A DNA stretch of 64,000 nt from Erysipelotrichaceae bacterium (GTDB lineage: Bacteria > Bacillota_I > Bacilli_A > RFN20 > CAG-826), in NCBI GenBank assembly GCA_015059105.1, contig SVBB01000004.1:5144-69143 (forward strand), given 5' to 3'. The position numbers were made by a program, and so were the translations under genes. Under the pieces are notes generated by a model that did not search any database, was not told the DNA's origin, and saw nothing but the letters and a program-made list of their open reading frames with translations. Below, piece after piece: positions 591 to 19,335 of this stretch. Numbering within the stretch: the first letter of the stretch is position 1; every line of letters starts with the position of its first letter.

Positions 591-2315
591 ATGGAACAAG
601 AAGCACCTGTTAAAAAGAAAAAACACCATGTTGGTTTATGGATTACATTGATCATCATTTTTGTATTAGTCATTTTACCTGTGGGATTAGCCTTTGCTTT
701 GTTCTTTGACCCTTCTCATAAGAGCGAAGAACAATTAGGAATTGATACAACAGGGAAAGCTCAATCGGTCAGTAAAAACCTCGTGGTTGATATGTTTGAC
801 TACACCGATAATGCGGATATGAAGAATTCGATATTGATATCTATTACCGAACAAGATGTTAATCAAGCCCTATATGATGGCATACTTTCTAAAATGGACG
901 CAAACACAAAATCGTTTATCCAAGCAGTATATTTAGAAGTTAACGAAGATGATTATACATTTACGGTCGAGCTCAATGCTTATGGCTTTTTCAAGACGCG
1001 TTTGATGCTTGTCACCGGCTTATCTTTGTCAGATAATCCTAAAGGATTAATGTTTGAAATTAAAAATATTAAAATCGCAAGACTTGGTGGAGTGCAGAGC
1101 ATTTCTATAAACATTCTTAAAAACTTCATCAACGATGCCGAATTAACAAAACAAATTCAGCAAGGAACGCATTTTGGAATTGAATCTCATTTATTTGATG
1201 ATAGTAATAAACACTATCTATTCTATCCACAAACACGCTTTATTGAAGATATGAAGAATATGATTGCTATCGATCAAAGCGTCGCGTTCTTCCAAGATTT
1301 CCTCATCGATATGATTTCTCAAAGAAAACTGACATTTGATTTCTATACTAATAAAGCAGTTAATGGACTATTATCCTTACAGGATTTTCATAACAATCCT
1401 ACTTATTGTAGTTATAACGATTATGTTATCGATTTTAATAACAAGGAATTGCTCAATCGATATCTTCCTTCGTTATTAAAAGAAGGAAAAGTCAATGAAC
1501 AAAACATCGATACTGTTTCTAAATTCTTATCTTATGGTTATACCCAATTAGATGAATCAGAAAAAACGTTTATTGATACCCAAGATTATCTTGCGGCTGC
1601 TTTAGGAAAATCATTAGCAGAATATTCTACTGATAGAGAATTAAAATTTGCTTCTAAAGGAGCAGCGTTAAAAGATGTGGAACAAATTGAGGATATCGTT
1701 TCTAAACAAGTGAGCGACTCATTGACCCCAACACGCATCGCGGAAATCATCGCTAGTAATGGTGGTAAAGTCAGCGATATCGCAATCGATGAAATACAAT
1801 TACACGATGTTTTAAAAACTAATCCAATCGTCGGGTACGGCAAAACATTCTATCGTCCAACTACTGATGGTAGTTATAAAGTTAGCTTTATCACTTTGGA
1901 CAACATCTATTTGAATATTGTTAATAACAATATCTATTACATCGTTGGTCTTAATATCAATGGTTATGAAGTGACTTTAATTCTTTCAACGATCATTCAA
2001 AGCAGTGGAAACGGCAAACTTAGTTTCAAGCTTGATAGCAATAATGTTTATTTAGGTAACTATAAATTACCTTCTACTTTATTTAATTCCCTCACGACGA
2101 TGTTAGGAGAGGCGATTGGTAATAGTGGGTGGTTCTCGTATGATGGAACAACTAATAGTTTCGTCGTCGATTTTTCTGAAGCGATTGAAAATAACAGTGA
2201 AATTAAAATATTAAAAGCAAGCGGTTTGAATATCAATATTGGAGTCTCCGCTTTAGGCAGTGCGATTTCTGATAACGGACATATCGAGATATCCGTTTCT
2301 GCATCGAAAAGTTAA
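591..2315 (+). CDS. Hypothetical membrane-anchored protein, 574 aa, with an N-terminal TM helix and a large extracytoplasmic domain
   Basis: A long ORF with a single N-terminal hydrophobic helix (LWITLIIIFVLVILPVGLAF). I recognise no catalytic motif. An A/T-rich promoter-like region lies upstream. Confidence 0.55.
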   Translation: MEQEAPVKKKKHHVGLWITLIIIFVLVILPVGLAFALFFDPSHKSEEQLGIDTTGKAQSVSKNLVVDMFDYTDNADMKNSILISITEQDVNQALYDGILSKMDANTKSFIQAVYLEVNEDDYTFTVELNAYGFFKTRLMLVTGLSLSDNPKGLMFEIKNIKIARLGGVQSISINILKNFINDAELTKQIQQGTHFGIESHLFDDSNKHYLFYPQTRFIEDMKNMIAIDQSVAFFQDFLIDMISQRKLTFDFYTNKAVNGLLSLQDFHNNPTYCSYNDYVIDFNNKELLNRYLPSLLKEGKVNEQNIDTVSKFLSYGYTQLDESEKTFIDTQDYLAAALGKSLAEYSTDRELKFASKGAALKDVEQIEDIVSKQVSDSLTPTRIAEIIASNGGKVSDIAIDEIQLHDVLKTNPIVGYGKTFYRPTTDGSYKVSFITLDNIYLNIVNNNIYYIVGLNINGYEVTLILSTIIQSSGNGKLSFKLDSNNVYLGNYKLPSTLFNSLTTMLGEAIGNSGWFSYDGTTNSFVVDFSEAIENNSEIKILKASGLNINIGVSALGSAISDNGHIEISVSASKS

Positions 2316-3337: not shown

Positions 3338-3802
3338 ATGAATGATCTCGCTAAAAAAAGAAAAGAATTAGGTTTAACACAAGAACACGTCGCCAAATTA
3401 GCGGGTGTTTCAAGACGCACTTACCAGACATATGAGGAAAATGAAATAGATAATGAAACGTATAGGATTCTTAATGCGTTAGTTGAAGAAATATCTAGTG
3501 GTCGTAATCGCATCATACCTTTAACTACTATAAAAACAGTAGTGAGACGAGTGCTGAAGAATTATCCAGAAGTAGCTGCTGCATATTTATTTGGTAGCTA
3601 CGCAAGAGGGGAAGCAACAGGAAAAAGTGACATTGATATATTGTTGGTGCTAAATGAACCAATGGGTATGAAATATTTTGGAATAGGGGCTGAGATTAAA
3701 GAGGCATTAAATAAAGAAGTAGATTTACTTACGCACAAGCAATTAATGAACGACGAATATTTATTAAGAAGGGTTTTAACAGATGCAATCAGAATTTATT
3801 GA
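3338..3802 (+). CDS. HTH (XRE-type) fused to a minimal nucleotidyltransferase (MNT) antitoxin
   Basis: The N-terminus LGLTQEHVAKLAGVSRRTYQTYE is an XRE helix-turn-helix. The C-terminal half carries the GSYARGEATGKSDIDILL MNT motif (GS-x9-11-D-x-D). It overlaps the downstream HEPN gene by 20 nt. Confidence 0.8.
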   Translation: MNDLAKKRKELGLTQEHVAKLAGVSRRTYQTYEENEIDNETYRILNALVEEISSGRNRIIPLTTIKTVVRRVLKNYPEVAAAYLFGSYARGEATGKSDIDILLVLNEPMGMKYFGIGAEIKEALNKEVDLLTHKQLMNDEYLLRRVLTDAIRIY

Positions 3803-4163
3803 TAAAGAACTATTAATACATCGATTGAAAAAAATAATTTTTATGATTGATGAAGTGTCAAATGATTTAGCAAAGATTAGCTTTGAAGACTTTAAGAAAT
3901 CAAGTGTTATTATCCGGGCGTCGTGTTTTTCACTATCCCAAATTGGAGAAACAATGAATAATATTGAAAAGAAAATCGGCAAAGCATATCCCAATATTCC
4001 TTGGAAAAACGCAAGAGATATGAGAAATCTCCTCGTCCATGATTATGACCATGTAAACGAAGAAATAGTCTATAAGACTTCAAAAGAAGATCTTCCTTTG
4101 TTAAAGAAATCACTGCTTGCATTAATAGACGATTTGGAGAAAGGTCTAGAAATCCCTTGTTAA
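3783..4163 (+). CDS. HepT-like HEPN ribonuclease toxin (DUF86)
   Basis: The R-x4-H HEPN motif RNLLVHDY lies near the C-terminus. The size (126 aa) and the translational coupling to the upstream MNT gene are typical of MNT/HepT pairs. Confidence 0.8.
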   Translation: MQSEFIDKELLIHRLKKIIFMIDEVSNDLAKISFEDFKKSSVIIRASCFSLSQIGETMNNIEKKIGKAYPNIPWKNARDMRNLLVHDYDHVNEEIVYKTSKEDLPLLKKSLLALIDDLEKGLEIPC

Positions 4164-4191: not shown

Positions 4192-4884
4192 ATGGAATTT
4201 GCAGGATTAGATAAATTATCGTTAGTGGATTTTGATGGGCATATCTCATGTATTCTTTTTACACGCGGCTGTAATTTCGCCTGTCCATTTTGTCATAATG
4301 GTCCTCTTGTAATTCCAGGCGTTGACAATCAATTTATTCCTTTTGAAGAAATATTATCTTTCTTAAAGAAGAGACAAGGGGTGTTGGACGCGGTTGTCAT
4401 CTCTGGTGGGGAACCAACCTTAATGCCAGATTTAAAAGAAAAAATTGAAGCGATTAAAGATTTAGGATATCTTATTAAACTCGATAGCAATGGAACTAGA
4501 CCAGAAGTTATCAAAGATCTCGTCGAATCTCATCTCATCGATTATATTGCGATGGATGTAAAATCTTCTTTAGAAACATATCCATTAATCACAAATGCGC
4601 GAGTGAATACCGATAAAATCGTGGAATCGATTAATTATATTAAGTCATGTGGAATCGATTATGAATTTAGAACGACATTGATCGATGAATTTCATGATGA
4701 AGAAGATATCCGTCAAATGGCGGAACTCGTCGGTAATGCGAAGAGATTTCGTCTACAAAAATATATCGATAGAGAAGGCTGCATTTCTCATGGCTTCCAT
4801 GAAGTGCCATTAGAAGTCGCAAAGAAATATATGGAGATATTAAAAAGCCACATTGATGATGTGGCTCTTAGAAGTTACGAATAA
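4192..4884 (+). CDS. nrdG: Anaerobic ribonucleoside-triphosphate reductase activating protein (radical SAM)
   Basis: CNFACPFCHN is the radical-SAM cluster motif. The size is NrdG-like, and the gene is adjacent to nrdD. Confidence 0.85.
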   Translation: MEFAGLDKLSLVDFDGHISCILFTRGCNFACPFCHNGPLVIPGVDNQFIPFEEILSFLKKRQGVLDAVVISGGEPTLMPDLKEKIEAIKDLGYLIKLDSNGTRPEVIKDLVESHLIDYIAMDVKSSLETYPLITNARVNTDKIVESINYIKSCGIDYEFRTTLIDEFHDEEDIRQMAELVGNAKRFRLQKYIDREGCISHGFHEVPLEVAKKYMEILKSHIDDVALRSYE

Positions 4885-4887
4885 TTA

Positions 4888-5799
4888 TTAATCAAGTGAA
4901 CGGAGGACGTTGAAGGCGGCTATCGCTCCATCGTTACATGCAGTTTGGACCTGACGAAGGTCTTTTTTTGTGCAGTCTCCGATGGCATATAATCCTTCAG
5001 TTTTGGTTTTCATCTTGCTGTCGACAATGATGAAGCCTCTTTCGTTTAATTCAACGAGGTTTTCAAATCTCTTATTATCGGCTTTTTGACCGATGCAGAT
5101 GAAGACACCTTTACAAGGAATAACGACTTCTTCACCCGTTTGGGTGTGCTTGAAGCGAAGTCCTTCAAGTTCGTCTTTGCCTAAGAATTCTTGTAAAGCG
5201 ATTTGCTTGATGACACTCAGCTTAGGATTAGCTTCGATGCGGTCGACAAGAATCTTATCCGCGAAGAATTTATCGAATAATAACGCCATAGTAACGTGGT
5301 TACAGTAGTTGGTGAGAAGTAAGGCGTATTGAGCAGCGGTATTCGCGTCTCCAATAACAACGACATCTTCTCCTTTAAAGAAGGCACCGTCACAAGTCGC
5401 ACAGTAGCTCACGCCTTTACCGATTAATTCTTCTTCTCTTTCTACCCCGATATGGTTATGAACAACACCAGTTGCAATGATCACTGTTTTACCTTGGTGC
5501 TCACCGTAATTGGTTTTGACCGTAAAGATATTGTTATCTTTAGAAATTGATTCAACTTCTTCAAGTTCAAATTCAACGCCTAAATCAGAGATTTGATCGA
5601 ATAAATTAGAAGAGAATTGTTCTCCGCTTATCTCCTTGATAGAAGGGATATTTTCTACGCGTGGAGAAGTAGCGATTTGTCCACCGAATGCTTCTCTTTC
5701 AATGAGAAGAACGGATTTGCCACCTCTTAATATATTAAGGGCAGCAGTCATTCCCGCCGGACCACCTCCAATGATGATACTATCGTAGATATTAGGCAT
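4888..5799 (-). CDS. trxB: Thioredoxin-disulfide reductase
   Basis: IIGGGPAGMTAA is the FAD-binding GxGxxG motif and CATCDG is the redox-active CxxC. The gene overlaps the nrdD stop by 8 nt, suggesting an operon with nrdD. Confidence 0.85.
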   Translation of the reverse strand: MPNIYDSIIIGGGPAGMTAALNILRGGKSVLLIEREAFGGQIATSPRVENIPSIKEISGEQFSSNLFDQISDLGVEFELEEVESISKDNNIFTVKTNYGEHQGKTVIIATGVVHNHIGVEREEELIGKGVSYCATCDGAFFKGEDVVVIGDANTAAQYALLLTNYCNHVTMALLFDKFFADKILVDRIEANPKLSVIKQIALQEFLGKDELEGLRFKHTQTGEEVVIPCKGVFICIGQKADNKRFENLVELNERGFIIVDSKMKTKTEGLYAIGDCTKKDLRQVQTACNDGAIAAFNVLRSLD

Positions 5800-8170
5800 C
5801 AGCTTGTCCTTCTAAATATCCTTTGATTTTGCTGACGTTGTCATAGACGTCATAGCCACCTTTACCGTTTGGGACGAATAAAGTTGGGGCTTTCTTAACG
5901 CCGAATTTATTAGTTAATTCGACATCTTCTTCGGCATCGATGATATTGACTTCGACATTGTGTTTAGCAAGAAGCATCTTTGCCATTTTGCAGTTAGGGC
6001 AAGTCTTAGTAGTGAATAAGATTAAGCCTTCTAATTGTTCAGTAGCGGCTTGGACATCAACTGGGACATTGTGTTCAACTGCTTGTTTATGCATCACAGA
6101 GTTAGCGATGTTATATGTTTGTCTGTTCTTGAATTCTTCAAGTTTACCAACGTTCCAGTTTTGAATTGGACGATAGTAACCAGTAATACGAGAATAGACT
6201 TCAGTGACTTCCCCACATTTTGGACAGCGGTAGACTTCGCCGACGATATAGCCATCATTCTTACAAACGGAATAAGTTGGGGACATCGTGTAATATGGGA
6301 GACGGTAATTCTCTGCGATTTTTCTCACAAGATTCATACAGGACTGCCAATCTGGCAATTTTTGTCCTAAGAATGCATGGAAGACAGTACCAGAAGTGTA
6401 TAAAGTTTGTAAATTGTCTTGGACATCAAGAGCAGAGAAGATATCATCTGTATAACCAACTGGTAAGTGAGAAGAGTTAGTGTAATATGGTGCTTCATCA
6501 TTATCGCTGGCAGTAATGATATCTGGGAATCTTTCTTTGTCGTGCTTCGCTAAACGATAAGCAGTGGATTCTGCTGGTGTTGCTTCAAGGTTATATAAGT
6601 CACCATATTGTTCTTGGTAATCAGAGAGTTTATTTCTCATGAAGTTGAGAACATCTTGGGTGAATTGTTGTGCAACTGGATCAGTTAAATCTTTCTTTAA
6701 CCATCTCGCATTTAAGCAAGCTTCATTCATACCGACTAAGCCAATAGTGGAGAAGTGGTTATTAAATGTGCCTAAATATCTCTTAGTATATGGATATAAA
6801 CCAGCTTCGAGGAGTTTAGTGATGACAGTACGTTTTGTCTTTAAGCTTCTCGCGGAGATATCCATTAATCTAGATAATCTTGCATAGAAATCTTTTTCAT
6901 CTGTCGCTAAATAAGCGATACGTGGCATGTTGATAGTGACAACACCAACGGAACCAGTGGATTCACCAGAGCCGAAGAAGCCACCAGATTTCTTTCTTAA
7001 TTCTCTTAAGTCAAGTCTTAAACGGCAGCACATAGAACGGACATCGCTTGGTTCCATATCAGAGTTGATATAGTTGGAGAAATATGGAGTGCCGTATTTG
7101 GCAGTCATTTCGAATAATAATTTATTATTTTCTGTTTCAGACCAGTCGAAGTCACGAGTGATGGAATAAGTTGGGATTGGGTATTGGAAACCACGGCCAT
7201 TAGCATCGCCTTCAATCATGATCTCGATAAAGGCTTTGTTGACCATATCCATTTCTTTCTTGCAGTCTTTATATTTAAATGGCATTTCTTTACCACCGAC
7301 GATCGCGTTTAATTCCGCTAAGTCGTTTGGTACAGTCCAGTCTAAAGTGACGTTAGTAAATGGTGCTTGTGTACCCCATCTAGATGGTGTGTTGACACCA
7401 TAGATGAAGGATTGAATGCATTGTTTGACTTCTTTATAAGTTAAACCGTCAGCTTTGACGAATGGTGCTAAATATGTATCGAAAGAGGAGAATGCTTGCG
7501 CGCCAGCCCATTCATTTTGCATGATACCAAGGAAGTTGACCATTTGGTTACATAATGTAGAGAGGTGGCTAGCAGGAGCAGAAGTAATTTTGCCAACAAC
7601 ACCGCCTAATCCTTCTTGGATTAATTGTTTGAGTGACCAACCAGCACAGTAGCCAGTGAGCATGCTTAAATCGTGGATGTGGATTTCCGCATTGCGGTGC
7701 GCATCTGCAATTTCTTTATCATATACTTCACTTAACCAATAGTTGGCTGTAATTGCACCGGAGTTACTGAGAATTAACCCACCGACACTGTAAGTAACAG
7801 TGGAATTCTCTTTGACACGCCAGTCAGCGATTTTTAAATAGTTATCGACAGTTTTCTTATAGTCGAGTTCAGTGGAAGCCATTTCACGAAGACTCTCGTG
7901 TTGGCGACGATAGAAGATGTAGGCCTTTGCAACATCGGTATAACCAGTCGCAACTAAAACATTTTCGACGGAATCTTGAATATCTTCGACGGAAATGAGG
8001 TCATCTCTAACTTTCTTGGAGAAATCAGCAGTAGTTCTTAAGGCTAACTTCTCAATAATCTCATCTGTGAATACTTTGTGTTCAGCAACGAATGCTTTGG
8101 TGATCGCGTTGCTTATCTTTGATAATTCGAATGGAACAATCGATCCATCTCTTTTTTTAACGTTGAGCAT
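5792..8170 (-). CDS. nrdD: Anaerobic ribonucleoside-triphosphate reductase (class III) with a C-terminal glutaredoxin/NrdH-like thioredoxin-fold extension
   Basis: The protein has an ATP-cone N-terminus. The glycyl-radical C-terminal motif RITGYYRP and a Zn-ribbon CPKCG are present. About 100 extra C-terminal residues follow, with TCPNCK and a thioredoxin fold. The start is set at the Met of MLNVKKRDG, which is preceded by the RBS gaggagg. The ORF-track start at 8239 looks over-extended. Confidence 0.9.
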   Translation of the reverse strand: MLNVKKRDGSIVPFELSKISNAITKAFVAEHKVFTDEIIEKLALRTTADFSKKVRDDLISVEDIQDSVENVLVATGYTDVAKAYIFYRRQHESLREMASTELDYKKTVDNYLKIADWRVKENSTVTYSVGGLILSNSGAITANYWLSEVYDKEIADAHRNAEIHIHDLSMLTGYCAGWSLKQLIQEGLGGVVGKITSAPASHLSTLCNQMVNFLGIMQNEWAGAQAFSSFDTYLAPFVKADGLTYKEVKQCIQSFIYGVNTPSRWGTQAPFTNVTLDWTVPNDLAELNAIVGGKEMPFKYKDCKKEMDMVNKAFIEIMIEGDANGRGFQYPIPTYSITRDFDWSETENNKLLFEMTAKYGTPYFSNYINSDMEPSDVRSMCCRLRLDLRELRKKSGGFFGSGESTGSVGVVTINMPRIAYLATDEKDFYARLSRLMDISARSLKTKRTVITKLLEAGLYPYTKRYLGTFNNHFSTIGLVGMNEACLNARWLKKDLTDPVAQQFTQDVLNFMRNKLSDYQEQYGDLYNLEATPAESTAYRLAKHDKERFPDIITASDNDEAPYYTNSSHLPVGYTDDIFSALDVQDNLQTLYTSGTVFHAFLGQKLPDWQSCMNLVRKIAENYRLPYYTMSPTYSVCKNDGYIVGEVYRCPKCGEVTEVYSRITGYYRPIQNWNVGKLEEFKNRQTYNIANSVMHKQAVEHNVPVDVQAATEQLEGLILFTTKTCPNCKMAKMLLAKHNVEVNIIDAEEDVELTNKFGVKKAPTLFVPNGKGGYDVYDNVSKIKGYLEGQADA

Positions 8171-8371
8171 AAAATTGGTCCTCCTCTTCATAGACTTACT
8201 CAAATTATAGAATGTTTGCAATGATCTAAGTGTCAGCACCCACTTATATCAAGGTAGAATTATACTAAACAAAATACCGCCTTAAATCAACTAATAAAAA
8301 CATATTTTTTTTGACACTGTCTAATTAGCAAAATCGCTAGCAAAAAAGGGATTAAACTACATTATTGAGCA

Positions 8372-8398
8372 AGAAAAAACCACAACGTTAATTGTGGC
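8372..8398 (-). terminator. Intrinsic terminator downstream of mscL (minus strand)
   Basis: The hairpin ccacaa-N6-ttgtgg is flanked by an A-run on the plus strand, which is a U-run on the minus transcript. Confidence 0.5.
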
Positions 8399-8406
8399 TA
8401 ATTCTC

Positions 8407-9032: not shown

Positions 9033-10031
9033 ATGATTGATTTACAAGTACACTTAGATGGTTCATTAACCAAGGAAGATATTATTTATCTTGCTGATAT
9101 GCAAAGGAAAGAACTTCCTGAAAATTTTGAAGATTTATTATGCGCGAAAGACAAATGTAAGAACATTAGAGAATATCTCAAATATTTTGATTTCCCTCTT
9201 TCATTACTCCAAAATGTCGATGCGATTGAATATGCGATGTATTCGTTAACATCGCGTCTCGCTAAACAAGGGTTATTATATGCGGAGATTAGATTTGCTC
9301 CCGCTCTTCATATCAAAAATTATCTCACTCAAGAAAGAGTGATTAAAGCCGCTTTACGCGGATTATATAAAGGATTATATGAGAATCCAGGTTTTGATGC
9401 GAACTTGATTCTCGTCTGCATGAGAGAATTTGGCATCGAAACCAATATGATTACGTGCAAGCATGCGATTAATTATAGTAAGGATAATAAGATTGTCGGT
9501 ATTGATTTAGCAGGAAACGAAAAAGTGAAACCTTGTTCCTATTTCAAAGACGTCTTCCTTTTAGCGAAGAAACATAATCTTCCATTTGTGATTCACGCGG
9601 GAGAAACTCGCGATGAAAAAGAAGTGATTGACGCAGTGGAACTCGGTGCTTCTCGTATCAGCCATGGCTTAAGTGTCGATTTCACCCCAAAGATGAATTA
9701 TTATCTCTCATCTCATAATGTCACTTTTGAACTATGTCCTACTCAAAATATCGATACCAAGGTTCTTCCAGATTATGAATCTTGCCCAATTAGAAAGATT
9801 TCCCGCGCGGGCGTATTAGCGACCATCTGTTCTGGTAACCAAACGATTAGCAACACTAATATTAATAAGGAATATATACATATGATTAAACATCAGAACT
9901 TTAGAAAAGAAGATGTTTATGAATATTTATCAAAAGCTGTGCAAGCTTCATTCTTGCGAGTTAAAGAAAAAGGGCAACTCATCAATAAGTTAGTCGCCCA
10001 ATTTGAGTATTTTTATAATTCTATTATATAA
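9033..10031 (+). CDS. add: Adenosine deaminase
   Basis: VHLDGSL is the N-terminal Zn-ligand motif and SHG..FELCPTQN is adenosine-deaminase-family. Confidence 0.85.
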   Translation: MIDLQVHLDGSLTKEDIIYLADMQRKELPENFEDLLCAKDKCKNIREYLKYFDFPLSLLQNVDAIEYAMYSLTSRLAKQGLLYAEIRFAPALHIKNYLTQERVIKAALRGLYKGLYENPGFDANLILVCMREFGIETNMITCKHAINYSKDNKIVGIDLAGNEKVKPCSYFKDVFLLAKKHNLPFVIHAGETRDEKEVIDAVELGASRISHGLSVDFTPKMNYYLSSHNVTFELCPTQNIDTKVLPDYESCPIRKISRAGVLATICSGNQTISNTNINKEYIHMIKHQNFRKEDVYEYLSKAVQASFLRVKEKGQLINKLVAQFEYFYNSII

Positions 10032-11019
10032 AATAGAAATCGAAGAAAGCATCGACGAACGGTTCGTAATATAGGCTGTGACTCGCTTGGTCTTTCCAAT
10101 TTCCAGAAGCGTTTAATTCATATTCACTAAGACGAGTGCCGACGAGCACTTTTCTTATTAAATTGGCCGTGTAATGGATATGTTTATTTCTTTCTTCGCT
10201 ATAATATGAGTCGGTGATAACTCCATCGGTGATTTCATCGTTGAAATAAACAGCCATATCATATAATTCCCCATCTTTATAATATTGGAAAGTCGGGACA
10301 AAACCGGTTTTATAACCGAATTCTTTGTTATATTTATCGGATAAGAAGTGGTCATCTTTAAACTGTTGATATCGATCAGGCTCTTCACTTCTAATCGGAT
10401 CCATATCAAATACATAGATTTTGCTATTAGTTTGCCAATATTTAAATCTCGGCATTAAAACATTAGGAGTGCAGTAGTTGCAGTCTGGACAAGATAAGCG
10501 GGTGTAATAGATGATGCCGTCATTATCAATGACCTCACTTTTAATTTGTTCTTCATTAATGAAGTACATATATGGAAGTTCCACAGTGTTTTTGATGAGC
10601 TCTAATAATTTATTTTCATCGGTGAAGTAGGAACTATTGTCGGTATAGAATACTCTTCTGATAACTTTCCCGTTCGCGATGATATAAAAAGCAGGGTTCA
10701 CACTGTTTTTGATGCCGAAAGCATTTAATCTTTCATCGATTTCTGTATCCGATATCTTATAAGTCAAAATGTGTTGATATTTGCTTAATACATCGAGAAC
10801 AGAAGCGAAATATCCCCAACATCCACAGGAAGTATCTCCATATGTTGCTAAGAGGAAGTTTTCATTATCCTTTTTACTATATAAAGTATCGTTATCAATT
10901 TCGACAGACGTCTCATGATATAAAGTCCCATATGTGATGCGGTCTAATGTCTTAGAATCGCAGCCAATCATACTAGGAGCGGCCATTAATAATGTAAATA
11001 AAAGTCCAATTTTTTTCAT
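10024..11019 (-). CDS. Cys-rich lipoprotein of unknown function
   Basis: MKKIGLLFTLLMAAPSMIGC is a lipobox. Several CxC/CxxC pairs occur (SCGCWG, CPDCNYC). Confidence 0.5.
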   Translation of the reverse strand: MKKIGLLFTLLMAAPSMIGCDSKTLDRITYGTLYHETSVEIDNDTLYSKKDNENFLLATYGDTSCGCWGYFASVLDVLSKYQHILTYKISDTEIDERLNAFGIKNSVNPAFYIIANGKVIRRVFYTDNSSYFTDENKLLELIKNTVELPYMYFINEEQIKSEVIDNDGIIYYTRLSCPDCNYCTPNVLMPRFKYWQTNSKIYVFDMDPIRSEEPDRYQQFKDDHFLSDKYNKEFGYKTGFVPTFQYYKDGELYDMAVYFNDEITDGVITDSYYSEERNKHIHYTANLIRKVLVGTRLSEYELNASGNWKDQASHSLYYEPFVDAFFDFYFI

Positions 11020-18235: not shown

Positions 18236-18646
18236 CTAATATTGCTGTAAATATTCTTCGGGAGATAAGACTTTGTTATTTGCGTTAATAAAGTCTTTTT
18301 TATTTCTTGTGAGAATAAAATCAGCACCGACGTTAGTGGCGACAGCATCGATGACTGCATCTTCAAAATCGTTCATATTTGAACTAATTGCTGAATATAT
18401 GCAGTTATCATCTACTTTTGCTAATCTAACCCATTTTAGTAAATCGATAACTAATTCTTTTGCTTTTTCTTTACTATGTAAACTTTTTGATAAATTATAA
18501 TGAAAATCAGTGATTGAAGAACACGAAATATATAATCTTGCATATTGCGATATTGCAAGTTTTAATGCGTTTAAAGAATTCTCGATAAAGTCTTTTCTAT
18601 TGGCGTAGATATCGATGAGAATATTCGTATCAACTAGTACAGTCAT
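18236..18646 (-). CDS. PIN-domain (VapC-like) toxin
   Basis: VLVDTNILID, with conserved acidic residues later, is a PIN domain. The start is set at MTVLV, 1 nt after the antitoxin stop. The ORF-track start at 18691 is over-extended into the antitoxin. Confidence 0.75.
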   Translation of the reverse strand: MTVLVDTNILIDIYANRKDFIENSLNALKLAISQYARLYISCSSITDFHYNLSKSLHSKEKAKELVIDLLKWVRLAKVDDNCIYSAISSNMNDFEDAVIDAVATNVGADFILTRNKKDFINANNKVLSPEEYLQQY

Positions 18647-18647
18647 A

Positions 18648-18962
18648 TTACTTACAAATCCTTTCGTCTCGCCATTTTTTAAGATCTTCATCAGTTATTT
18701 CTTTTCCCTCTGGATTTGCTTTTCCCACAATAGAATCTAACCATGCGAGTTTGGCTGCAATATCTTCGGGTGCTTTTAATACGGCGATAGTTTTGCCGTT
18801 TTTTGTGATTAAAATGTCTTCCTTTGAAGCGAGTTCGAGATACTTTCCGAGATTCTTTTTGAATTCTGTAGCAGTAATAGTCATTGGTTTATCCTTATCT
18901 GCTTTTATTATAGGATAAAGCGTACGATTTTCCAATAAATCGTGCGAAATTGTATGTGCCAT
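18648..18962 (-). CDS. Phd/YefM-type antitoxin
   Basis: TITATEFKKNLGKYLE..ILITKNGKTIAVL is the Phd/YefM N-terminal fold. It sits directly upstream of the PIN toxin. Confidence 0.65.
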   Translation of the reverse strand: MAHTISHDLLENRTLYPIIKADKDKPMTITATEFKKNLGKYLELASKEDILITKNGKTIAVLKAPEDIAAKLAWLDSIVGKANPEGKEITDEDLKKWRDERICK

Positions 18963-19015
18963 AAAACACCTCCTATTTATATATACCCAAAAGGTCGCAT
19001 TTTTTCGGGAAACAT
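18963..19015 (-). repeat. Copy A of the recurrent promoter/RBS cassette, driving the Phd-PIN operon
   Basis: The sense strand reads ttcccgaaaaaatgcgaccttttgggtatatataaataggaggtgtttta-ATG. It is near-identical to copy B and related to copies C, D and E. Confidence 0.7.
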
Positions 19016-19017
19016 TT

Positions 19018-19335
19018 TTATATTTTTATAATTTTTTCAATATTTCCAAGTGAATAAATAATGCGACGTACTTCCATTATTAGTTCGTCTTCTTCTTTGA
19101 CGATGTAGAAAACAGTGTAGTTACCTACGTATATACGATAATAAGGGCTTTCTCTTTGCTTTTTAGATTTATATGGTTCGTAGGCTTTTGGAAAATAGCT
19201 ACGAGAAATAATTGCTTGCTCAACGTCGTCAATAAATGATTTTGCAGCAGATTCGTTTGTTAGAACATTATTGATGTAATTATATATGTCTTGAAGATCT
19301 TCAAAGAATAATGGTAGATATTGGATTTTGGTCAT
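19018..19335 (-). CDS. RelE/ParE-family toxin
   Basis: The ORF is 105 aa. YRIYVGNYTVFYIV is typical of RelE/ParE. It overlaps the upstream antitoxin with ATGA. Confidence 0.75.
   Translation of the reverse strand: MTKIQYLPLFFEDLQDIYNYINNVLTNESAAKSFIDDVEQAIISRSYFPKAYEPYKSKKQRESPYYRIYVGNYTVFYIVKEEDELIMEVRRIIYSLGNIEKIIKI

Follow-up and report, generated by a model that had tools for sequence, protein, structure and literature searches.

The 64,000-nt stretch of contig SVBB01000004.1 from an Erysipelotrichaceae bacterium (hereafter the window) carries nrdD, the gene for a class III ribonucleotide reductase (RNR) with a redoxin domain fused to its C-terminus. It is followed directly by a gene for a flavoprotein resembling thioredoxin reductase (TrxR), with nrdG, the gene for the NrdD activase, convergent next to it. 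The locus probably encodes a class III RNR with its own dithiol relay, in which electrons would pass from a donor to the flavoprotein, then to the tethered redoxin, and finally to the active-site disulfide of NrdD. The domain architecture, catalytic residues, fold and operon coupling, together with their conservation, were documented across hundreds of species.

The C-terminal Redoxin Domain of NrdD

The nrdD product (792 aa) was recognized as a class III ribonucleoside-triphosphate reductase by NF006126, an NCBIfam equivalog (1134 bits; cut-off 548), and by TIGR02487 (515 bits; cut-off 326) and PF13597 (632-633 bits; cut-off 26). Its Pfam domains are an ATP-cone (residues 3-92), NRDD (121-686), and Glutaredoxin (PF00462; 717-769), and the glycyl-radical domain is followed by a linker of about 25 aa and a redoxin domain of about 79 residues. 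An earlier interpretation made from the letters of this DNA without database searches (the sequence-only reading) had proposed an NrdD with a fused C-terminal redoxin at positions 5792-8170, with a glycyl-radical motif, a zinc ribbon, and a TCPNCK tail, and all of these were found (RITGYY, 661-666; C636/C649/C652; TCPNCK, 723-728). The domain search that it called for assigned the tail to PF00462 above the gathering score of 22.9, with 37.1 bits for the whole NrdD and 40.8 bits for the isolated tail.

An AlphaFold2 model of the redoxin domain, computed from an alignment of 33 homologous domains, had a pLDDT of 86.6 and the topology beta-alpha-beta-alpha-beta-beta-alpha. In the model, the CxxC (25-28 in domain numbering) lies at the start of helix 1 (H26-37), and the putative cis-proline (P63, corresponding to P762 of KAPTL) directly precedes strand 3 (E64-68). 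Structure prediction thus placed a redox-active CxxC in a thioredoxin fold, as the sequence-only reading had expected. The Foldseek search against the PDB returned only thioredoxin-fold redoxins, namely thioredoxins, protein disulfide isomerase domains, and glutaredoxins, with TM scores of about 0.6-0.7. The nearest solved relatives by profile search were the Grx-like/PDO proteins of thermophiles (39 bits), which are TrxR substrates in these organisms, and small archaeal thioredoxins, B. subtilis TrxA, and NrdH gave lower scores.

Only the general Pfam Glutaredoxin model was cleared by the tail, and the models for Grx3, NrdH, YruB, the Mj0307-type thioredoxin, and mycoredoxin all remained far below their cut-offs. 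A true glutaredoxin was rejected by TIGR02181 (29.5 bits; cut-off 90) and TIGR02180 (17.8 bits; cut-off 87), and an NrdH-redoxin by TIGR02194 (24.4 bits; cut-off 85.75). Inspection of the sequence gave the same answer; of the glutathione-binding motifs of glutaredoxins, TVP is replaced by KAPT and GGxDD is not evident, and of the NrdH-redoxin motifs, CVQC is replaced by CPNC and WSGFRP is lacking. The accurate label for the tail is "glutaredoxin-like redoxin".

Across 66 full-length fusions, identity was 77-98% in the NrdD core and 57-99% in the Grx domain, whereas the linker varied in sequence and ranged from 23 to 51 residues. Because the core and the Grx domain are conserved and the linker is variable, the sequences fit two functional domains on a flexible tether. 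None of these relatives departs from CPNC, KAPTL, or the fused arrangement, which argues that the fusion did not arise by chance.

The Active Site of NrdD

Alignment with the Thermotoga maritima NrdD (PDB 4coi) placed C175 on C125, MCCR (380-383) on SCCR (328-331), and E529 on E495, whereas the formate-type NrdD of Prevotella copri has MGCR at the finger-loop position. This comparison with thioredoxin-dependent and formate-type enzymes, which the sequence-only reading had suggested, revealed the double-cysteine loop and the Glu of the thioredoxin-type NrdD2. The NrdD2 subtype is defined by a third cysteine and an active-site Glu, and its Neisseria bacilliformis member uses thioredoxin (PMC4493059, PMC9669993); both the xCCR finger loop and the active-site Glu are present in the window NrdD. 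C175, MCCR, E529, the glycyl-radical motif, CPNC, and KAPTL are invariant in the 66 full-length fusions, and RITG664YY and C636/C649/C652 are conserved in the same relatives. Judging from these alignments, the active site is of the double-cysteine type, as in the thioredoxin-dependent enzymes, and all the residues required for thiol chemistry are in place.

A separate observation concerns residue 639 (6254-6256, minus strand), which adjoins the zinc-ribbon cysteines and may be a fourth metal ligand. It is Asp in the window NrdD (CKNDGY) and His in almost all relatives (C-x2-H-G-Y).

The TrxR-like Flavoprotein

The flavoprotein has the low-Mr TrxR architecture, with PF07992, GGGPAG (11-16) as the GxGxxG motif for FAD, CATC (133-136) as the redox-active CxxC, and a CDGAFF loop. 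Its AlphaFold2 model (pLDDT 89.6) has an intact Rossmann-like second domain, and the top Foldseek matches were all TrxRs, with TM scores of 0.82-0.84 to structures in the flavin-reducing state, such as 3cty, 5mh4, and 1f6m.

The NADPH-binding motifs of TrxB are replaced in this protein, and its score of 299.9 bits against TIGR01292 was below the cut-off of 343.45. In the HMMER alignment with the B. cereus TrxR, GGGDSA is changed to GDANTA and HRRDTLRA to LLFDKFFA, with all four basic residues replaced by Leu or Phe. E. coli TrxB served as a visual reference, and the HMMER alignments carry the motif comparison independently of it. GD[AG]NTA and LFD[KR]FF[GA]D were found in all 76 nrdD-linked homologues from GTDB genomes, and HRR occurred in none of the 120 closest flavoprotein clusters. 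The FAD motif is retained, as are CAxC and the CDGAF[FY] loop, and D151, N153, Q157, Y158, C166, L174, F175, and F179 are invariant in the subfamily. The absence of GxGxxA and HRRxxxR is a published criterion for non-NADPH TrxRs (PMC10880999). Given this criterion, the two replaced motifs, and the TIGR01292 score, the flavoprotein is, on its sequence, not a canonical NADPH thioredoxin reductase.

The flavoprotein did not cluster with FFTR and DTR either; these scored lower than NADPH TrxRs, and the C-terminal extension and Trp are lacking. The best PDB match was the Thermosipho africanus TrxR (7jyp), in which HRRxxxR is also lost in the aligned region and GGGDSA is kept. The pattern suggests that the nucleotide site was lost independently. 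A YumC-type ferredoxin/flavodoxin reductase was ruled out by the low similarity (83 bits) and the retained CxxC. The relatives are named "FAD-dependent oxidoreductase" by NCBI and "thioredoxin reductase (NADPH)" by JGI.

The invariant C166 (5302-5304, minus strand; in an NYC context) is an extra cysteine in the remodelled nucleotide-binding domain of the subfamily, and canonical TrxRs have Phe-Ala or Ile-Ala at this site.

Distribution of the Module and Linkage of Its Genes

The GTDB was scanned with the domain alignment as the query and one genome per species, and the best 80 of at least 554 loci were examined. The taxonomy labels of the metagenome-assembled genomes (MAGs) are given as deposited. 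At least 554 species representatives encode a relative of the TCPNCKM-type domain. With few exceptions they are MAGs from gut or rumen, and their labels are Erysipelotrichaceae, Bacilli, Clostridia, Christensenella, or Mollicutes; Erysipelotrichaceae bacterium SIG220 gave the best match (98% identity). The domain was part of NrdD in all of the best 80 loci, a few of which were cut by contig ends or frameshifts. Among the 79 of these that extend past nrdD, every one had a TrxR-like gene next on the same strand. The nrdD-flavoprotein junction was measured in 57 loci; the genes overlapped or were separated by 9 nt or less in 29, by 42-103 nt in 26, and by more than 250 nt in two. Starting from the flavoprotein, three of three sampled relatives (58-62% identity) were encoded directly 3' of NrdD-Grx. 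Thus, the flavoprotein linkage is near-absolute in the close clade. The position of nrdG was less uniform, since it follows directly and convergently in Bacilli-type loci and lies elsewhere or is co-directional in Clostridia-type loci.

The 120 closest NrdD clusters (78-96% identity) were all about 790 aa long, and PF00462 was detected in 117 of them. An exhaustive search of 50%-identity clusters with the glycyl-radical and Grx segment gave 21 matches below 1e-30 and 316 below 1e-10, including short forms and intein-containing forms of 1041-1608 aa. Inteins, with boundaries read by eye, were apparent in four NrdD-Grx relatives (P0190, P0207, P0208, and P0224; up to 1608 aa). One of them lies exactly between the two finger-loop catalytic cysteines (SMC, intein P...HN, CRLRL), and splicing would restore MCCR.

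The sequence-only reading had viewed the fused redoxin and a dedicated reductase as one thiol-based module. The NrdD2 residues, the redoxin fold, and the linkage in 79 of 79 loci favor this view. Two points must be revised: the partner is not a canonical TrxB, and the finger loop is MCCR, not SCCR.

The NrdD cores of the Bacilli- or Erysipelotrichaceae-labelled and the Clostridia- or Christensenella-labelled MAGs (L007-L086) are 77-82% identical, which is unusually high across classes; either the module has been transferred horizontally or the taxonomy labels are unreliable. The carriers are fermentative anaerobes, and in two loci (L001 and L100) the module has hydrogenase or NuoEF-like genes nearby.

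Several candidates for other gene arrangements were discarded. Naturally split nrdD and grx genes were not supported, as the "stand-alone" matches of 72-92 aa were mostly fragments. In the one locus inspected (L004, 1380-1480), a 1-nt frameshift within a run of seven A accounts for the seemingly separate 74-aa redoxin gene, and for this reason short matches of this kind should not be taken as split genes unless checked; two further loci (L005 and L006) were frameshift-ridden assemblies. An apparent NrdD-Grx-TrxB triple fusion of 950 aa (P0002; L001, 5256-9507) was probably not real but the result of a frameshift or of read-through into an N-terminal TrxB fragment. In that locus, the genes after P0002 encode a TrxB fragment, another TrxR-like protein of full length, and a protein resembling [FeFe]-hydrogenase.

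Proposed Mechanism

We infer each electron-transfer step of the relay, and especially the identity of the ultimate donor, from sequence. NrdG would install the glycyl radical at G664, and the radical would then move to a finger-loop cysteine, either C381 or C382. Substrate reduction would oxidize C175 and the other finger-loop cysteine to a disulfide, with E529 acting as the proton donor, as proposed for NrdD2 enzymes. The C724/C727 pair of the tethered redoxin could re-reduce this disulfide in cis or across the dimer. The oxidized redoxin would in turn be recycled by the flavoprotein, translated from the same mRNA, via FAD and C133/C136.

The flavoprotein lacks the NADPH motifs, as do pyridine-nucleotide-independent reductases, and since the NAD(P)H-binding residues are lost, its electrons would most likely come not from NADPH but from ferredoxin, flavodoxin, or a similar low-potential carrier. 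These two donors are favored by analogy with FFTR/DTR and with the chain of ferredoxin:disulfide reductase, NrdH, and NrdD3 in Methanosarcina barkeri, which was reportedly described by Wei et al. in 2015, and this step is the weakest link of the model. The sequence-only reading had suggested an assay with NADPH/TrxB against formate; because the motifs that bind NAD(P)H are lost in every relative examined, such an assay may fail for the wrong reason. The external pair of cysteines that RNRs of classes I and II have at the C-terminus is missing from class III RNRs (Lundin et al., PMC4390871), and the fused redoxin would take its role.

Alternative Explanations

Several observations weigh against a thiol relay fed by a low-potential carrier. 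The TrxR-like gene was absent within 4 kb of nine more distant NrdD-Grx fusions on IMG/VR contigs (L087-L094 and L098), which are classed as viral; the reductase is therefore not an obligatory neighbor of NrdD-Grx. MCCR keeps Met380, a residue tied to formate chemistry, so that formate use would be possible (PMC9669993). According to Burnim et al., Met-bearing double-cysteine enzymes are equipped for formate or thioredoxin, and MCCR is present in 83% of double-cysteine NrdDs, for which either reductant is usable in principle (PMC9669993). The flavoprotein gave about 200 bits against NADPH TrxRs, compared with 132 bits against DTR (5j60) and 103-125 bits against clostridial FFTR (6gna/6gnc/6gnd), and 11 of the 76 nrdD-linked relatives retain the central Gly (GDGNTA). 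Finally, the case for ferredoxin is drawn solely from motif loss within the flavoprotein sequence.

If the catalytic reductant were formate, acting as in E. coli NrdD through thiosulfuranyl chemistry of Met380/C175, the role of the redoxin and the flavoprotein would be confined to repair or regulation of NrdD, such as the re-reduction of cysteines oxidized after oxygen exposure or the gating of activity according to the redox state of the cell. The retained Met380, the viral contigs devoid of the reductase, and the activating role of thioredoxin reported for the class III RNR of E. coli (PMC4390871) are in line with this. However, E529 and the second finger-loop Cys are invariant and are not needed by formate chemistry, and the linkage in 79 of 79 loci with frequent stop/start overlap points to stoichiometric co-expression, which is better suited to a turnover partner than to an occasional repair factor. 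We therefore regard formate as a distinctly unlikely reductant. An ordinary NAD(P)H-dependent TrxR that tolerates the motif changes, giving the chain of NAD(P)H, TrxR, Grx, and NrdD that the sequence-only reading had proposed, is also unlikely. NADPH TrxRs are the best sequence and structure matches of the flavoprotein, some sources call its relatives "thioredoxin reductase (NADPH)", the Rossmann-like domain is intact in the model, and the central Gly persists in the 11 relatives above. Against these points stands the conserved loss of all phosphate- and pyrophosphate-binding signatures, with HRRxxxR's four basic residues replaced in every one of the 76 loci and HRR lacking in all 120 clusters, together with the sub-threshold TIGR01292 score and the NCBI name, which is only "FAD-dependent oxidoreductase". 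The absence of the motifs is itself the published mark of a non-NADPH enzyme (PMC10880999), and reading of the alignment showed no acidic residue at the NADH-selecting AhpF position.

The adjacency might also be incidental, with the flavoprotein as the general disulfide reductase of the cell and the fused domain as a neutral accretion. A single TrxB is usual in Bacilli (PMC10880999), and the 64-kb window yielded no further Trx or TrxR. Nevertheless, the linkage held in 79 of 79 loci across Bacilli- and Clostridia-labelled MAGs and in three of three from the flavoprotein side, the stop and start codons overlap or nearly abut in half of the measured loci, the remodelled domain is specific to the subfamily, and CPNC is strictly conserved, which makes this explanation very improbable. 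Hardly credible at all is a role of the flavoprotein, with or without the Grx domain, in feeding the [4Fe-4S] cluster of NrdG in the manner of the TrxR-like flavodoxin/ferredoxin reductases of the YumC family. It would account for nrdG as the immediate convergent neighbor in Bacilli-type loci, and in Lactococcus, ribonucleotide reduction involves a YumC-type reductase that is annotated as TrxB (PMC4626851). However, YumC-type enzymes scored 83 bits compared with about 200 bits for TrxRs, and in many Clostridia-type loci nrdG is distant while the flavoprotein gene still follows nrdD-grx. In addition, the redox-active CAxC, which YumC-type reductases are not known to have, is invariant here, and dithiols are too weakly reducing for radical-SAM clusters.

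The dithiol relay can be extended to a broader proposal, which we put forward tentatively and consider somewhat doubtful as a whole. The flavoprotein would represent a third lineage of flavin disulfide reductases that work without pyridine nucleotides, one that evolved independently from Firmicute NADPH-TrxRs and not from FFTR/DTR, with the NrdD-fused redoxin as its sole client. In hundreds of Bacilli and Clostridia species of gut and rumen, dNTP synthesis would then be wired to the reduced ferredoxin/flavodoxin pool, independently of formate and NADPH. By extension, MCCR-type enzymes, the majority of double-cysteine class III RNRs, might be thiol-driven in vivo.

Gene Boundaries and Neighboring Genes

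The positions of the features are listed in Table 1. The longest nrdD open reading frame (ORF) runs from a GTG (5792..8239, minus strand; 815 aa). The start was assigned to the ATG at 8170, giving 792 aa, because the ribosome-binding site GAGGAGGA lies 8 nt 5' of it, the ATP-cone and NF006126 profile alignments begin at residue 2-3, and homologues in more than 120 NrdD clusters have lengths of 787-793 aa. On the same three grounds, two alternative starts were ruled out, the GTG at 8239 and the ATG at 8191. The nrdD stop overlaps the ATG of the flavoprotein gene by 8 nt (ATGCCTAA; GCTGATGCCTAATATC), and nrdG is convergent with the flavoprotein gene, with 3 nt between the two gene ends; both the overlap and the orientation agree with the sequence-only reading.

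Table 1. Positions of the nrdD-grx locus features in the window.
Feature	Position	Strand	Basis or remark
nrdD::grx CDS, 792 aa + stop; class III ribonucleoside-triphosphate reductase with C-terminal redoxin	5792..8170	-	NF006126, PF13597
ATP-cone, residues 3-92	7895..8164	-	PF03477, 84 bits
Cys175, predicted beta-A active-site cysteine (T. maritima C125)	7646..7648	-	4coi alignment; invariant in 66 relatives
Finger loop M380-C381-C382-R383, double cysteine	7022..7033	-	Aligned to SCCR 328-331 of 4coi
Glu529 (T. maritima E495), proposed proton donor of thiol-dependent NrdD2	6584..6586	-	Alignment
Zinc ribbon C636/C649/C652 and glycyl-radical motif RITG664YY (661-666)	6173..6265	-	
Linker, residues ~689-713	6032..6106	-	Variable sequence; pLDDT below 50-77 in model
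Glutaredoxin-like thioredoxin-fold domain, residues 714-792	5795..6031	-	PF00462, AlphaFold2, Foldseek
C724-P-N-C727 of redoxin domain (TCPNCK 723-728)	5990-6001	-	
Putative cis-Pro motif KAPTL (760-764) of redoxin domain	5879-5893	-	
TrxR-like flavoprotein CDS, low-Mr type, 303 aa	4888..5799	-	
C133-A-T-C136 of flavoprotein	5392-5403	-	
GDANTA (150-155), in place of GxGxxA	5335-5352	-	
LLFDKFFA (173-180), in place of HRRxxxR	5260-5283	-	
nrdG, radical-SAM activase of NrdD	4192..4884	+	TIGR02495, 205.6 bits (cut-off 131)
Region upstream of nrdD	8171..8399	-	mscL terminator 8399-8378 and ribosome-binding site GAGGAGGA

In the region upstream of nrdD, no NrdR box matched the consensus ACACWATATATWGTGT with up to three mismatches allowed, and the scan called no sigma-70 promoter; candidates found by eye had the wrong spacing. 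A toxin-antitoxin pair consisting of an MNT nucleotidyltransferase with an N-terminal HTH (3338-3802, plus strand) and a HepT-like RNase (3783-4163, plus strand) sits between a fructose-bisphosphate aldolase gene and nrdG. A type II toxin-antitoxin cluster (18236-19335, minus strand) comprises a PIN-domain protein, a Phd/YefM antitoxin, and a ParE toxin. Two sizeable ORFs (10024-11019, minus strand; 591-2315, plus strand) had no Pfam match; the former encodes a lipoprotein-like product (signal peptide and Cys) with the cysteine motifs SCGCWGY and SCPDCNYC.

Significance

Few class III RNRs have been studied for their reductant, and the redoxin fusion with a co-encoded reductase provides strong genomic evidence for a thiol route in MCCR-type enzymes. 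NrdD-Grx, the flavoprotein, and NrdG form a compact three-protein system for testing which reductant these enzymes use. The flavoprotein also defines a subfamily of TrxR-like proteins that is conserved and has a remodelled nucleotide site; some databases mislabel this subfamily as "thioredoxin reductase (NADPH)". At least 554 species-level genomes, largely from uncultured gut and rumen bacteria, carry the module, which bears on how these anaerobes couple DNA synthesis to redox metabolism.

Comparison with Known Systems

Class III RNRs that depend on thiols, RNR subunits fused to Grx, an operon-encoded redoxin and reductase for NrdD3, and NADPH-independent TrxR-like flavoenzymes are already known. 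In the literature consulted, no description was found of the C-terminal NrdD-redoxin fusion as a large family, of its pairing with the TrxR-like protein, or of the remodelled nucleotide site. One RefSeq "Glutaredoxin:NrdD" has been tabulated, from Lachnospiraceae bacterium TWA4 (NrdDd), with no partner reductase reported (PMC6187632).

The nearest solved relatives of the two redox proteins have no link to RNR. The Grx-like/PDO proteins (PDB 2ywm, 1j08, 1a8l), partners of TrxR in thermophiles, resemble the redoxin domain weakly at the 39 bits given above, and PDOs are two-domain proteins. T. africanus TrxR, the closest structure to the flavoprotein, keeps GGGDSA. The clostridial FFTR and the cyanobacterial DTR/FFTR likewise combine a low-Mr TrxR fold, FAD, and CxxC with the absence of GxGxxA/HRRxxxR (PMC8154056, PMC10880999). 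In contrast to them, the window flavoprotein is closer to NADPH TrxRs, ends in NVLRSLD with no C-terminal Trp tail, and has its own invariant replacements (GDANTA, QY, C166, and LFDKFF).

In the class I RNR of Facklamia ignava, a glutaredoxin-fold domain is also fused to an RNR subunit (Grx::NrdB) and was shown to be the reductant of that enzyme (PMC6187632). There, the redoxin sits at the N-terminus of the radical-generating subunit of an aerobic enzyme and depends on glutathione, whereas the fusion in the window is C-terminal and on NrdD. M. barkeri NrdD3 reportedly has an operon-encoded dedicated redoxin (NrdH-like) and reductase as well, with ferredoxin and not NADPH as the electron source (PMC9176816). 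It relies on an Fe-S (FTR-like) reductase, a separate redoxin, and an NrdD3 that lacks the Glu, in contrast to the low-Mr TrxR-fold flavoprotein, the fused redoxin, and the Glu found in the window.

In its active site, the window NrdD parallels the thioredoxin-dependent NrdD2 of N. bacilliformis and T. maritima, reportedly described by Wei et al. in 2014, which has the same double-cysteine loop, beta-A cysteine, and active-site Glu, and whose disulfide is re-reduced by a thioredoxin-fold protein, not by formate (PMC4493059, PMC9669993, PMC4390871). This NrdD2 has SCCR and is served by a separate general thioredoxin and an NADPH-TrxR, whereas the window enzyme has MCCR, a fused redoxin, and a co-encoded TrxR-like enzyme without the NADPH motifs.

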